Source of the DNA: a virus
Lineage: Duplodnaviria; Caudoviricetes
IMG/VR virus record: IMGVR_UViG_3300029305_006521
Span: 1 to 64,000 of that record
Reading direction: 5' to 3' (one strand)
DNA: 64,000 bases
The notes under the pieces were generated by a model. The model was not told the origin of the DNA. It saw nothing but the letters and a program-made list of their open reading frames with translations, and made no database searches. Of this stretch, positions 2,166 through 49,826 are shown piece after piece (position 1 is the first letter of the stretch; each line of letters starts with the position of its first letter). The position numbers were made by a program, and so were the translations under genes.

Positions 2166-3043
2166 TGGAAGAAAAACAACTTAATTTAGGTGAAATGCTC
2201 GATTCACTTTCAGAACTTAACGGTGAACAATTTAGTCTTGAAGCCTTTGCTTCTATTTTAGCATTACCAGATGAAGAATTTAAAACTCTATCTGGAATTA
2301 TTCTTGATGAATTAAATAAAAGTTTAAACAATCCTAATGATAGACTCCTTCTGGCTCAAAGTTTTAATGCACAAGGTATTACTTCTGATGAAGTAATTGC
2401 TAATTTCAAGGAATTGGCAACACAGATTGATTCCATTGGGGATGATGTACTTCCCCAAGCCAAACGAGATTTTGTAAAACAAATCGTTGGTTTAATGGTT
2501 AATGCTATTGCAGAAACAGAAGGTATTTCAAAACGAATTATTCAAATTCCTATTGAACTATGTCATCCCAATGCTAAAATTCCTGCTTATGCAAAGCCTG
2601 GTGACGCAGGAATGGACATTTATGCTCTTGAAGATTTTGAGGTTGCGCCTGGCGAACGGAAGATTATTAAGACAGGTCTTAAAGTAGCAATCCCTCGTGG
2701 TTATGAACTACAAGTGCGGCCGCGCTCTGGAACCTCAGTAAAAACTGCCCTTCGTGTTGCCAATACTCCTGGTACCATTGATAGTGGTTACAGAGATGAA
2801 ATTGGTGTTATTATTGAGAATATTGAACCAAAAGTAAAGGATATTGATTATGATTTTGATGAAACTGGCCGTCCTGTAATTACTTCAATTCTTTATGGTT
2901 CAGTATTCAATGTTGGAAAAGGCGAACGTTTTGCACAACTTGTGCTTAATGAAGTACCATCTGCGGCCTTCTATCCAGTTGATTCAGTTGCTCAAATTGG
3001 TGAGAACCGCGGCGGTGGCTTTGGTTCTACCGGGAAGGAGTAA
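2165..3043 (+). CDS. dut: Trimeric dUTPase with ~125-aa N-terminal extension
   Basis: Motifs AGMDI, RPRSG, GTIDSGYRDEI, RFAQLV, RGGGFGSTG. Confidence 0.92.
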   Translation: MEEKQLNLGEMLDSLSELNGEQFSLEAFASILALPDEEFKTLSGIILDELNKSLNNPNDRLLLAQSFNAQGITSDEVIANFKELATQIDSIGDDVLPQAKRDFVKQIVGLMVNAIAETEGISKRIIQIPIELCHPNAKIPAYAKPGDAGMDIYALEDFEVAPGERKIIKTGLKVAIPRGYELQVRPRSGTSVKTALRVANTPGTIDSGYRDEIGVIIENIEPKVKDIDYDFDETGRPVITSILYGSVFNVGKGERFAQLVLNEVPSAAFYPVDSVAQIGENRGGGFGSTGKE

Positions 3044-3799
3044 TTGGGCAGATTAAAATATGAAGAAGTAAAAAACATAATTGAAAGTGCAGGATGGTCG
3101 CTTATAACGGAAAGTTATCAAAATCTTGACCAAGAGTTAGAATTGAGATGCCCCGAAAATCATCGTGTTTTTACTTCATTAAAAAAATTCAGAAATGCCC
3201 CCTATTGTCCAAATTGTAGTACAAACTCTTTTAAAATTGCTGATGATAAAATAATCACAAAGAAAAAAGGAATAAAAAGAGTTTTAGCTTTAGATCAATC
3301 GACTCAAGTATCTGGTTGGTCAGTTTATGATGATAGACAATTAATTAAATATGGTATTTTTTACACTTCGCTTGAAAATCAAGAATTGCGCGACCATGCT
3401 TTAAAAGAATGGTTAGTTAATATGATTCATAATTGGAAGCCTGATTTGATAGCGATTGAAGATATACAACTTCAAGAATTTCGAGAAGGGAAAAAGGTCG
3501 ATTCAGATAATATTAAAGGCATTCTAATTTTCAAGACACTTGCACGCTTACAAGGTGTAATCATTGAATGTTGCATAGAGCAAGGAATTGATTATACTGT
3601 TTGCTCAACAAATACATGGCGTGCCCATTGTAAAGTTAAAGGTAACACACGAAGTGATAAAAAACGTTCAATGCAATTACTTGTAAAAGAATGGCACGAT
3701 GTAACCGTAACTGAAGATGAAGCCGATGCCATTGGAATTGGTTATTATGCTTCTGAGATTTATGGGAAACAAAATACCATAGTAAATTGGGAAGAATAA
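3044..3799 (+). CDS. RuvC-like Holliday junction resolvase with N-terminal Zn-ribbon
   Basis: LALDQS, IAIED and DEADAIGI acidic motifs; N-terminal CPENH...CPNC; TTG start after AAGGAG. Confidence 0.8.
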   Translation: MGRLKYEEVKNIIESAGWSLITESYQNLDQELELRCPENHRVFTSLKKFRNAPYCPNCSTNSFKIADDKIITKKKGIKRVLALDQSTQVSGWSVYDDRQLIKYGIFYTSLENQELRDHALKEWLVNMIHNWKPDLIAIEDIQLQEFREGKKVDSDNIKGILIFKTLARLQGVIIECCIEQGIDYTVCSTNTWRAHCKVKGNTRSDKKRSMQLLVKEWHDVTVTEDEADAIGIGYYASEIYGKQNTIVNWEE

Positions 3800-4734: not shown

Positions 4735-5136
4735 TTAAGCGCCAGGTGTCGCAGCGGCAGGTGCGGGTAAGGCGGCTAAATTATTTCCACAACGAGAGCA
4801 TGGAATTTTTCCAAGTAGCTTAAAGACGCCACTTGTTATATCTGTTCTTACAACTACTGAATAACGAGTTCTCCTGTTAATAGAGCAGGCATAAACAGTT
4901 GAACAATCGCAATTCATTAAAGGATAAGTTGTAGCTGTATCCCCACCAATGGTAATTGCAACAGGTGCTGTGATTGTTGTAGTATCAGGCAAATTCTGAG
5001 CAACTACTATACAATACTTTTGTCCATTAGCATAATTACCAGCAGGTAGGTCTATTAATAAAGTATTATCAGCAAAAGTAACAGAATTTGAAATTATCAA
5101 TCTGTCACACATTCTTTTATAAGTACTGCATTTCAT
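4735..5136 (-). CDS. Cys-rich hypothetical protein
   Basis: 133-aa ORF with SD AAGGA and several Cys. Confidence 0.75.
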   Translation of the reverse strand: MKCSTYKRMCDRLIISNSVTFADNTLLIDLPAGNYANGQKYCIVVAQNLPDTTTITAPVAITIGGDTATTYPLMNCDCSTVYACSINRRTRYSVVVRTDITSGVFKLLGKIPCSRCGNNLAALPAPAAATPGA

Positions 5137-5154
5137 TTCCTTTCACCCCTTTTA

Positions 5155-5185
5155 AAAAGAGGGGATATTGTATAATATCCCCTCA
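5155..5185 (-). terminator. Intrinsic terminator after the 274-aa Gly/Cys-rich gene
   Basis: GAGGGGATATT-loop-AATATCCCCTC followed by a U-run on the minus strand. Confidence 0.7.
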
Positions 5186-5213
5186 AAATCACGCTTTCGC
5201 GGAGATATAACAA

Positions 5214-6038
5214 CTAGAAGCAGTCGCCGCAACCACAACCGCTGCCACCGTAGCCATACGCGGCGGAAGGATAGCAACAATTGGGATTAGGTACTACAAA
5301 AGCAGGTACGGGACAATCACGACCAAGCCTGCGAATTAATTCAGCAGTCTGAGCTTCTTGATTTGCAGCGATAAAGGAATTCTGATTTGCTTGAGAGATT
5401 TGATTTTTAAGAGTTTGATTTTCATCTCTAAGCGCATCCAGTTTGTCCTGAACGAGGAAATCAAGAATAGAACGAGTGTTCGCATTTTGACTATCAATAA
5501 TATCGCGAGTAGTAGACTGAATTAAGTTTCTAGTGTCACAAGCCTGTGAAGCCATGTCATAACGCATATCGCAGCAGCACTGAGCTAACTGAGAACTTAA
5601 AGCGTTAAAACCTGCCTGATTCTGGAAACTACTTTGCATTATAGATTTGTCGATTCCACAGAAGCCTTGACTCATATTATACTGAGTCTGGCAGCAACAA
5701 TTTTGAATAGCACTAAGGACACCATTAATAGCATTATTAGTAGCATAGAAGCCATCACAAATACCATTAGAGATAGACCGCAGGCTATTATCAATTTGAC
5801 CAAAGTTAAAGGCATCAGTCATGCCCTGCATTGTAGCAGGTACGCAACAAGCGCTGTATCCGTCGCCTCCTCCGCCGTTGCCTCCAAAACCGTTACGACC
5901 CCAGCCGCCGGCGCCGAAAAGAAGAATGAGGATTATAATCCACCAAGCTCCGTCTCCATCACCAAAACCACTAGAACCATTACCAGAATTGCGTAATGCT
6001 AAAGCATCTGCTACAGAGATTCCTTCATTTCCCATCAT
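5214..6038 (-). CDS. Gly/Cys-rich protein with N-terminal hydrophobic helix (WWIIILILLF) and coiled coil
   Basis: CCC motifs, GCGCG C-terminus, strong SD, codon usage typical of highly expressed genes. Confidence 0.8.
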   Translation of the reverse strand: MMGNEGISVADALALRNSGNGSSGFGDGDGAWWIIILILLFGAGGWGRNGFGGNGGGGDGYSACCVPATMQGMTDAFNFGQIDNSLRSISNGICDGFYATNNAINGVLSAIQNCCCQTQYNMSQGFCGIDKSIMQSSFQNQAGFNALSSQLAQCCCDMRYDMASQACDTRNLIQSTTRDIIDSQNANTRSILDFLVQDKLDALRDENQTLKNQISQANQNSFIAANQEAQTAELIRRLGRDCPVPAFVVPNPNCCYPSAAYGYGGSGCGCGDCF

Positions 6039-48255: not shown

Positions 48256-48284
48256 TTGACATATTTAGATGTATGCTGTATACT
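48256..48284 (+). promoter_or_regulatory. Sigma-A promoter of the first rightward unit; a palindrome half-site lies in its spacer
   Basis: TTGACA-17-TATACT, A-tract UP element upstream, TTTAGATGT at 48264-48272. Confidence 0.85.
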
Positions 48285-48332: not shown

Positions 48333-48851
48333 ATGAGCAAAATCTATGTATTCAAGGCAACCGACAAGGGTATCATTGGCAAAGCCTTTGAAATGGCTAT
48401 CAAAGACAGCCTGAACCGCAAAAATGCTGACAGGGTCAGCCCCTGCGGAACTTGCGATTTCCGCTATAATCGCAAAGCCTATGATACTAAACAGAACGGC
48501 TCTGTTCTCAAGTATGACGGCGTAGACGGCTATGTTCGCGGCTCTTCCCGTGTTATCTATGCAACCCATGTTGCCCACACCATGAGCGTGCAGGGTGAGC
48601 AGGCTTTCATCTCTATCGACCTGATGAACACTGAAATGTTCGTCCTTGACAAAAAGGACTTTGTGGAAGAGCTTGAGCGCATGAACGCTATGAAGTACAA
48701 TGCCGCAAGGCATGAAATCAATATCCAGACCATGTACAACTACAAAAAGGACGCCTACCACGGCAAGAAAGGCAAGGACCTTGAACAGTGGGCATGGGAG
48801 AACTGCCTTGAGGATGATATCCTTGACGCAATCATTGAGGGGCTTGAATAA
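48333..48851 (+). CDS. PD-(D/E)XK restriction-endonuclease-like nuclease (putative)
   Basis: GKAFE helix...CD...YDTK arrangement; start ATG 48333 after AAGGA. Confidence 0.5.
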   Translation: MSKIYVFKATDKGIIGKAFEMAIKDSLNRKNADRVSPCGTCDFRYNRKAYDTKQNGSVLKYDGVDGYVRGSSRVIYATHVAHTMSVQGEQAFISIDLMNTEMFVLDKKDFVEELERMNAMKYNAARHEINIQTMYNYKKDAYHGKKGKDLEQWAWENCLEDDILDAIIEGLE

Positions 48852-48859
48852 AGCCCCTT

Positions 48860-48907
48860 TGGGTCAGCCGGTAAGAGTCCGGCTCTGATGAGCAAGAGCG
48901 AAACCCA
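48860..48907 (+). ncRNA. Type III hammerhead ribozyme
   Basis: UGGGUC|AGCCGG-loop-CCGGCU-CUGAUGA-GC-AAGA-GC-GAAACCCA: intact core, GUC cleavage triplet, stems I, II and III all pair. Confidence 0.85.
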
Positions 48908-48929
48908 TAAAAGAAAGGAAGCTAAGAAA

Positions 48930-49238
48930 ATGAAAGAAGCCTATACTGATATCTGCAAGATGATTGTCAAGATGATGGAGAAAGAAGCTAAGTATGAAGC
49001 TGAATATGATGCCGCATATGAAGCCTTTTTCGACCAGAACCACGCTGTCACCTACTGGGAAGAACGGTATAAAGAAGAAGGGGAAGCCGTAGGTAGTGAA
49101 CTGGATGCCGCCTATGATGCTAACCATGAAGCTTGGCAAAAGCAGAGTGATGCTGGTGATAAACTTGATGTAGTCCGTGATATTCTAAGGCACCTTAGAG
49201 AAGCCGCCGAACTGATTGAAGATAATGAGGGGATATAA
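48930..49238 (+). CDS. Acidic helical hypothetical protein
   Basis: ATG 48930 after GAAAGGA, immediately downstream of the ribozyme. Confidence 0.8.
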   Translation: MKEAYTDICKMIVKMMEKEAKYEAEYDAAYEAFFDQNHAVTYWEERYKEEGEAVGSELDAAYDANHEAWQKQSDAGDKLDVVRDILRHLREAAELIEDNEGI

Positions 49239-49277
49239 ATCCCCTTTTTATTTATTGTTTAGTTTCTCAATAGGAAA

Positions 49278-49335
49278 CTTAGATGTAGCACATCTAAATC
49301 CCAATGTTGACAAATGGGAAACTATGTAGTACAAT
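49278..49335 (+). promoter_or_regulatory. Palindrome plus sigma-A promoter (gap 8)
   Basis: TTGACA 49307, 17-bp spacer, TACAAT 49330. Confidence 0.85.
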
Positions 49336-49367
49336 GTATATACAGTAAAGGAAAGGGGAACACGAAC

Positions 49368-49826
49368 ATGAGTAACTATACTATCTACTTTGACATGGAC
49401 GGTACCATTGCAAACCTGTATGGGGTTGACAACTGGCTTGACAAGCTGAGGGCTGAGGATGCAAGCCCATATGTAGAAGCTGAGCCTATGGTCGATATGT
49501 GTGAACTGAGTCGCCTCCTGTGTAAAGCTGTTGAGATGGGCTACAGGCTGGGTATTATCAGTTGGCTGAGCCGAGAGGCATCGCAGGAGTATAAGAAAGA
49601 AATCCGAGCTGCAAAGCGTGCATGGTTGGAAGAAAATCTCGATGTAGATTTTGATGAAATTCATCTTGTGCAGTATGGCACAAGAAAAGATTATGTGGCA
49701 CAGGATAAACAGGGAATTATCTTTGATGATGATGAAAGAGTGAGAAATAATTGGAAAGGTTTTGCAATCAATCCAGAGGAAACAAATATGATTGATTTTC
49801 TGAAATTTATTGTAATGGACGAGTAA
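49368..49826 (+). CDS. HAD-superfamily 5'(3')-nucleotidase-like hydrolase
   Basis: FDMDGTIA motif I, IIS motif II, K and IFDD motifs. Confidence 0.8.
   Translation: MSNYTIYFDMDGTIANLYGVDNWLDKLRAEDASPYVEAEPMVDMCELSRLLCKAVEMGYRLGIISWLSREASQEYKKEIRAAKRAWLEENLDVDFDEIHLVQYGTRKDYVAQDKQGIIFDDDERVRNNWKGFAINPEETNMIDFLKFIVMDE

Follow-up and report, generated by a model that had tools for sequence, protein, structure and literature searches.

Why should a hammerhead, an RNA fold that cuts its own strand, lie between the two genes of an early phage operon, and what would its cleavage do to the message that carries both of them? The locus that raises this question belongs to an uncultured gut-type phage (Duplodnaviria; Caudoviricetes) whose virus record, IMGVR_UViG_3300029305_006521, is complete (144.6 kb; CheckV 100%), and the first 64,000 nucleotides of that record constitute the stretch of DNA analysed here, referred to below as the window. 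The terminase of the phage is closest to those of Geobacillus virus E3 (43% at the amino acid level), of SPbeta/YonF-type Bacillota phages and of other large Bacillota phages, and its matches include Bacillus, Enterococcus and Clostridium phages. Together with the SD sequences and the sigma-70-type promoters, these matches indicate that the host is probably a member of the Bacillota. A crAss-like affiliation, suggested by the giant minus-strand genes, is ruled out by the terminase, the use of SD sequences and the sigma-70-type promoters. In the GenBank phage collection, blastn finds no match to the region. As set out below, the hammerhead between the two phage genes is real and evolutionarily conserved, and it is predicted to cut itself.

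A complete hammerhead at a single site in the genome

The overall architecture of the element is that of a complete hammerhead ribozyme, and the positions of its parts are collected in Table 1 with those of the genes and signals around it. The stems, loops, core, GUC triplet and GAA that the first-pass annotation, a reading of the DNA letters by a model, had assigned to this stretch are all present where it had placed them, and on the same sequence reading A15.1 (A48903) is paired with U16.1 (U48864). Stems I, II and III comprise 6, 2 and 5 bp, all of them Watson-Crick pairs, and the hammerhead is of type III because the ends of the element lie in stem III. The three-way junction is the MFE structure of the isolated 58-mer, and also the MFE structure within contexts of 161 and 291 nt (ViennaRNA), in which loops close stems I and II while stem III is left open. 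The folding energy itself is unexceptional (z = -1.4). By its core, its topology and the covariation of stems I and III shown below, the element falls within the hammerhead class, with cleavage as the predicted consequence.

Table 1. Features of the ribozyme and of the two-gene unit around it (window coordinates)
Feature	Position	Strand	Details
Sigma-70-type promoter TTGACA-17-TATACT	48256..48284	+	11/12 matches; no other strong rightward promoter 5' of the ribozyme
Gene 1, 172 aa, PD-(D/E)xK nuclease-like	48333..48851	+	Large unannotated family; start reset; homologues, AF2
GC-rich hairpin	48838..48858	+	TAA stop 48849-51 in the loop; only UUU follows; not a canonical terminator
Type III hammerhead ribozyme	48860..48907	+	Complete; sequence reading, fold, relatives, family model R1
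Stem III, 5' arm UGGGU	48860-64	+	Pairs with ACCCA 48903-07; 5 bp
Cleavage triplet GUC	C17 = 48865	+	Predicted scissile bond C48865/A48866; sequence reading
Stem I, AGCCGG 48866-71 / CCGGCU 48879-84	48866..48884	+	6 bp; loop 1 UAAGAGU 48872-78
Catalytic core CUGAUGA (C3-A9)	48885-91	+	Sequence reading
Stem II, GC 48892-93 / GC 48898-99	48892-99	+	2 bp (G10.1-C11.1, C10.2-G11.2); loop 2 AAGA 48894-97
GAA (G12-A13-A14)	48900-02	+	Sequence reading; core, stem-loop II and GAA together 48885..48902
SD AAAGGAAG of gene 2	48914..48921	+	8-nt spacing to ATG 48930
Gene 2, 102 aa	48930..49238	+	ORF; no family match
Intrinsic terminator with T-run	49227..49254	+	Closes the two-gene unit; terminator scan (49227-46, with T-run)
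Palindrome	49279-97		Followed by the next promoter, 49307-35

Chance is excluded as the origin of this hammerhead, the expectation being below 0.001 per genome. Chance was modelled by first-order Markov sequence, 24 Mb in total and matched to the genome in composition, and the descriptor run on it demanded CUGANGA, GAA, H17 and three stems. With stems of at least 5/2/5 bp and compact loops, no match occurs in the 24 Mb of simulated sequence, and a 4/2/4 descriptor gives two matches, equivalent to 0.024 per genome. In the whole 144,568-bp phage genome the descriptor recovers one good hammerhead only. A covariance model built for the family described below (R1) finds the window site and no other in the genome, at 73.4 bits and an E-value of 1.8e-19 that is, like all R1 E-values, rough.

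Rfam 15 at gathering thresholds reports nothing in the window. The Infernal search with Rfam hammerhead models, proposed as a check by the first-pass annotation, accordingly stays below threshold: a permissive match to RF00008 (Hammerhead_3) reaches 16.4 bits (E 0.53) against a gathering score of 48.5, in an alignment that is misregistered and takes the wrong GUC. Hammerheads of the same type in the loci of 14 relatives likewise give no score above the Rfam gathering threshold. RF00008, a model of viroid- and satellite-type hammerheads, shares with the window element its topology (stem III open), its core and its GUC site, whereas the model aligns a longer stem II, with 12 nt for the hairpin compared with 4 in the window, where stem II has 2 bp. 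We attribute the sub-threshold score to a limitation of the curated model and do not count it against the ribozyme.

A covarying family with one fixed geometry

A search of IMG/VR with the core pattern CTGATGAGC-4N-GCGAAAC yields 113 stretches, and the descriptor identifies about 75 of them as complete hammerheads of a single fixed geometry. A 6-bp stem I closed by a 7-nt loop 1 and a GC/GC stem II whose loop has 4 nt define this geometry, together with a stem III of 3-10 bp and a cleavage site that is GUC, or GUU in two members. Forty-two distinct sequences of 52 nt align without gaps (alignment A1), and counting the pairs across them reveals a stem I that is 100% paired, with both sides changed in five of its six pairs. 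The inner pairs of stem III covary across the same 42 sequences, and the third pair from the core (pair 5-48) occurs as four pair types while remaining 100% paired. For this set, which was picked by a descriptor that demands pairing and is made up of phylogenetically non-independent members, a covariation score of 0.50 compares with 0.11 in shuffled alignments, and none of 500 shuffles reaches the observed value. Controls with slid partners give about 0.07-0.13, with about 28-40% of cells paired. Independent of the choice by pairing, two thirds of the core matches show perfect helices at the fixed spacing.

The core, the GAA and the A15.1-U16.1 pair are invariant in the 42 relatives; at H17, 40 of them have C and two have U. 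A lack of conservation or covariation of the stems in relatives had been named by the first-pass annotation as grounds for abandoning its call; both were looked for and are clearly present in stems I and III, and core, helices, conservation and covariation agree on a type III hammerhead with a predicted cut after C48865. Loop 1 follows the consensus U-R-N-R-A-G-U, with U1, A5 and U7 in 42 of 42 sequences, and loop 2 the consensus A-N-N-A, with the 3' A equally constant (42/42); the conservation of both loops was not imposed by the first core-pattern search. The loop 2 consensus fits the RNnA motif of Dufour et al. [quoted passage not shown] The 5' U that every one of the 42 sequences has in loop 1 fits UNmYN, but the pyrimidine is the last nucleotide of the loop and not the penultimate one (PMC2632901). 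Watson-Crick complementarity of loop 1 with loop 2, or of either loop with the flanks, gives no signal above permutation controls, and no Watson-Crick pseudoknot of these kinds is seen.

The first pattern had fixed stem II, and the scan was therefore repeated with the 8-nt stem-loop II left unconstrained. In this rescan GC....GC is found in 70 of 73 matches, and the remaining three carry single mismatches, none of which is compensated. Stem II is thus invariant, and its pairing is backed by invariance and not by covariation, where invariance neither proves nor disproves pairing. Two-base-pair stems II are common in natural hammerheads, and hammerheads with a stem II of 2 bp, or even 1 bp, are active (Perreault et al. 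2011, PMC3088659). The very short stem II, entered as a caveat by the first-pass annotation, loses its force in view of how common such stems are (PMC3088659) and of the constancy in 70 of 73 matches.

Clostridia (Butyrivibrio, Eubacteriales, Caproicibacter) make up most of the named genomes in which this ribozyme architecture recurs, and two MAG contigs labelled Bacteroidales carry it as well. Other structured RNAs occur in some of these loci. In L005 (9181-9261) and L009 (126-660, 6734-6781), relatives with the same hammerhead type, the additional elements are a skipping-rope RNA (RF02924, 76.6 bits) about 900 nt upstream of the ribozyme, a gut-2 RNA (RF02990) and a five-tRNA cluster.

The two-gene transcription unit

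The ribozyme sits inside the first early operon of the array, the order of the unit being promoter, gene 1, non-terminating hairpin, ribozyme, SD, gene 2 and terminator. The flanks are as the first-pass annotation had described them, with a hairpin spanning the stop of the nuclease gene on one side and the SD of the gene at 48930 just 3' of the ribozyme on the other. The terminator scan does not call the hairpin at 48838-58, and no T-run follows it. That annotation had also contrasted this junction with most other terminator-like junctions of the array, which have a palindrome and a promoter where this one has the ribozyme, and the contrast is borne out, as no promoter is found between the ribozyme and gene 2. 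The start of gene 1 is placed at ATG 48333 and not at ATG 48273, the start of the longest ORF, because the latter lies inside the promoter of the gene, in the spacer between its -35 and -10 elements; ATG 48333 gives a protein of 172 aa, the length of the homologues.

Gene 1 has no Pfam or PHROG match, but at least 170 homologous proteins, each about 172 aa long, form a family with it. Its AF2 model (pLDDT 88) finds as its best structural matches PD-(D/E)xK restriction-endonuclease folds with modest Z scores, including NhoI (Z 6.7) and Eco15I-N (Z 5.1), and the top matches are nearly all PD-(D/E)xK enzymes. A Foldseek search of the model against the PDB gives no match at E<=0.001. The conserved residues are E20, D42 and [D/E]51-x-K53, and 'putative nuclease' is a reasonable, if unproven, name for the protein. 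Gene 2 has no relative in viral contigs, and the gene located 3' of the ribozyme in relative L001 is at best marginally similar to it (E 0.018). In the window, the AUG contained in CUGAUGA shares the reading frame of gene 2; a coding reading of this AUG is rejected, since the same frame meets a stop in L001.

The next unit (49314-49826) encodes a HAD-type protein that matches the 5'-3' deoxyribonucleotidase family phrog_2643 (1.5e-8) and, more weakly, the polynucleotide kinase family phrog_415 (2.7e-4), and L001 has a homologue of it at the same relative place (4775-5374). Any link between this protein and the RNA ends that the ribozyme would make is pure speculation.

The same junction in relatives

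A comparison with related viral loci reveals both how the ribozyme is maintained at this junction and how often the junction does without it. The gene 1 protein leads to L001/L003 (57% aa identity), where a hammerhead occupies the same junction and stem I reads UGCAGG/CCUGCA in place of AGCCGG/CCGGCU, that is, with two compensatory pair changes. In L001 near-identical hammerheads with the same stem I lie on either side of the gene 1 homologue (2967-3012 and 3565-3614), and the mRNA of this gene would consequently be released as a unit with a 5'-OH and a 2',3'-cyclic phosphate end.

From the terminase onward, relative L006 follows the window collinearly, with about 70% nucleotide identity in the terminase and matches that run in order through 43.6-51.2 kb. 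The best-conserved stretch is the hammerhead with its 3' flank (88% nucleotide identity over 74 nt), in which stems and loops are identical, and the genes on both sides of it are unlike those of the window (L006:5491-6275 compared with window 48333-49238). Apart from the ribozyme, nothing in the 161-aa upstream gene of L006 matches the window at the nucleotide level. The C-terminus of this gene resembles, by eye only, that of a 126-aa gene located 5' of the middle ribozyme of L069, which in turn has no detectable similarity to gene 1 of the window. The comparison of L006 with the window suggests that cassettes may have been exchanged around a conserved ribozyme junction. On the minus strand of L069 (1145-1983), each of three successive junctions between small genes carries a hammerhead. 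The middle one differs from that of the window only by the swap of an A-U for a C-G pair in stem I, and the first copy (1983-1932) has the core CCGAUGA (U4 changed to C), is matched by the covariance model only (72.3 bits) and, judging from this change, may be attenuated or dead.

In the small sample of homologous junctions reached through related viral loci, 9 of about 11 distinct gene 1 junctions are without a ribozyme. Among these, L130, L131, L134, L138 and L139 have a hairpin, an SD and an ATG, and L132, L133/L135, L136 and L137 have a terminator, a palindrome and a promoter. With most gene 1 homologues lacking the ribozyme at this junction, the 48-nt element appears as a facultative module between a pre-existing hairpin and an SD. 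Two of the junctions without ribozyme (L133:741-900, L137:681-800) have a palindrome of the form TTTAGATGT...ACATCTAAA right after the gene 1 homologue, and the same palindrome also heads promoters of the window's array (window 49279-97).

The surroundings of the ribozyme recur across the family as a coding-strand unit of gene stop, hairpin, hammerhead, SD and ATG. A stable hairpin (dG <= -10) ends within 12 nt upstream in 38 of 57 family members (67%), compared with 17% of random sites in the same loci, and an SD-like motif and start codon follow within 40 nt downstream in 42 of 55 (76%), compared with 15%. The SD GGAGG is part of the 3' arm of stem III, or abuts it, in 19 of 55 contexts, a number that includes many related ones; examples are L009:3041-3090, L027:9523-9572, L032:1752-1797 and L043:9114-9163. 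Folding predicts a more accessible SD after cleavage for some of these relatives (from 0.32 to 0.83 in L027) and not for all, so that an SD embedded in stem III could, by these folding predictions, act as a ribosome-binding site released by cleavage.

What cleavage would do to the message

The position of the ribozyme at a promoter-less junction makes processing of the dicistronic mRNA the best reading of the locus. We put the probability at roughly 70% that an active, cis-cleaving hammerhead splits the dicistronic early mRNA into two hairpin-capped, uncoupled monocistronic messages. Promoter 48256-84 would transcribe gene 1, the ribozyme and gene 2 as one early mRNA, and the ribozyme would fold co-transcriptionally and cut between C48865 and A48866. 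The upstream message would then end with the stop-codon hairpin, 7 further nucleotides and a 2',3'-cyclic phosphate, and the downstream message would start with a 5'-OH paired flush in the 6-bp stem I hairpin, with the SD of gene 2 following 30 nt later. The products would be two separate monocistronic mRNAs, uncoupled in stability and translation, the same separation that a terminator and a promoter would achieve at the other junctions of the array. Terminal hairpins protect mRNA from 3' exonucleases and from RNases that depend on the 5' end. The layout of the unit, with a promoter upstream, a hairpin that does not terminate, no internal promoter and a terminator after gene 2, supports the processing reading, which the first-pass annotation had also proposed. 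From the motif, its conservation and covariation and this layout we infer that cleavage takes place in vivo and that it affects stability and translation. Transcript processing, proposed as the fate of long transcripts carrying gene-flanking phage hammerheads, is the standard hypothesis for such elements (PMC3088659; review PMC6765202).

Some features of the locus limit or qualify this role. The hairpin at 48838-58 with its UUU might partly terminate transcription and leave less substrate for the ribozyme, and the 9 of about 11 gene 1 junctions that lack a ribozyme make any benefit of it dispensable. Unmasking of the ribosome-binding site is not supported for the window, where the SD of gene 2 is predicted to be mostly unpaired before and after cleavage and its accessibility does not improve (unpaired probability 0.72 before and 0.56 after).

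An active ribozyme might instead turn gene 2 down, with RNase J1 attacking the exposed 5'-OH and leaving the distal cistron lower or more briefly expressed. In Bacillota, 5'-OH ends can promote decay by RNase J1 instead of protecting the RNA, as in the case of glmS. We consider this outcome rather unlikely here, where the 5' nucleotide of the product would be flush-paired in a conserved, covarying and GC-rich 6-bp hairpin of a kind generally known to block 5'-end-dependent RNases, and where the succession of hairpin, ribozyme, SD and ATG looks made for expression and not for destruction. The points that nevertheless speak for it are the probable Bacillota host, an SD whose accessibility is not improved by cleavage and the precedent of glmS, in which cleavage lowers expression through cellular RNases (review PMC6765202).

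That the element is kept mainly as a junction module of a portable or selfish kind, or as a seam in the DNA at which recombination swaps cassettes, with cleavage incidental, is suggested by its patchy presence at homologous junctions, by the identical ribozyme between unrelated genes in L006 and by the near-identical copies at two to three adjacent junctions in L001 and L069. The compensatory changes, however, keep the pairing of the RNA and so require selection on the RNA; no target-site duplications or other signatures of mobility are seen, and an identity of 48 nt is short for homologous recombination, all of which makes such an origin of its persistence unlikely. Least probable by far is that the window holds an inactive look-alike, a decayed or chance motif with a 2-bp stem II unable to support folding. 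Its short stem II, its Rfam scores below threshold and its folding energy (z = -1.4) would agree with this, but the simulated sequence excludes chance, the strong covariation, purifying selection and intact core contradict decay, and hammerheads with 2-bp and even 1-bp stems II are active (PMC3088659).

Beyond processing at this one junction, a wider and more tentative proposal can be made, which we regard as possible though doubtful. Hairpin, hammerhead and SD might together form a portable insulator of operon-internal junctions in Bacillota phages, around which cassettes are exchanged; in the roughly one third of cases with the SD in stem III, cleavage might in addition serve as a one-shot switch freeing the ribosome-binding site. 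The hammerheads concerned form a tight subclass invisible to current Rfam models.

Relation to known systems and significance

The arrangement has been known in phages since 2011, and the window provides a clean new example of it. The phage and prophage hammerheads of Perreault 2011 (PMC3088659) have the same intergenic, coding-strand placement between small phage genes, and the role proposed for them, the production of gene-length mRNAs by processing, is the role proposed for the window ribozyme. Exact hammerhead sequences from the present set were not found in a string search of the literature or in the supplements of that report (PMC3088659). The clustered gene-flanking pattern of Perreault 2011 is absent from the window genome, which has a single copy in 145 kb, whereas the classic two to three copies flanking single genes are seen in relatives L001 (two) and L069 (three). 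The window junction is promoter-less, and the rest of its array uses terminator, palindrome and promoter, unlike the arrangement of Perreault 2011.

Somewhat new are the single copy at a promoter-less junction, the comparison of relatives with and without the ribozyme, and the SD embedded in stem III of relatives. A sharply defined subclass, with a 6-bp stem I, a URNRAGU loop 1 and a GC-ANNA-GC stem-loop II, that is missed by Rfam is likewise somewhat new. In synthetic insulators of the RiboJ type, a hammerhead just upstream of the RBS cleaves so that the downstream cistron has a defined and structured 5' end, whatever sequence precedes it. The window hammerhead is likewise located just upstream of an RBS; RiboJ is synthetic, follows a promoter and has an added downstream hairpin, whereas the window element is natural, lies between two cistrons and is without such a hairpin. 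The glmS ribozyme of Bacillota is similar in that an mRNA cleaves itself in a Gram-positive setting and yields a 5'-OH product, a predicted one in the case of the window, whose fate would set expression. It differs in its unrelated fold and its dependence on a metabolite, and its 5'-OH product is degraded, whereas the 5' end in the window would be buried in a hairpin.

The phage hammerhead subclass described here, with at least 70 members in IMG/VR, lies below Rfam thresholds, and annotation pipelines therefore undercount such elements. For the question of what bacterial and phage hammerheads do, the locus offers a well-controlled natural case. Among close relatives this junction occurs in both states, with the ribozyme and lacking it, which makes the hypothesis of mRNA processing and insulation directly testable.
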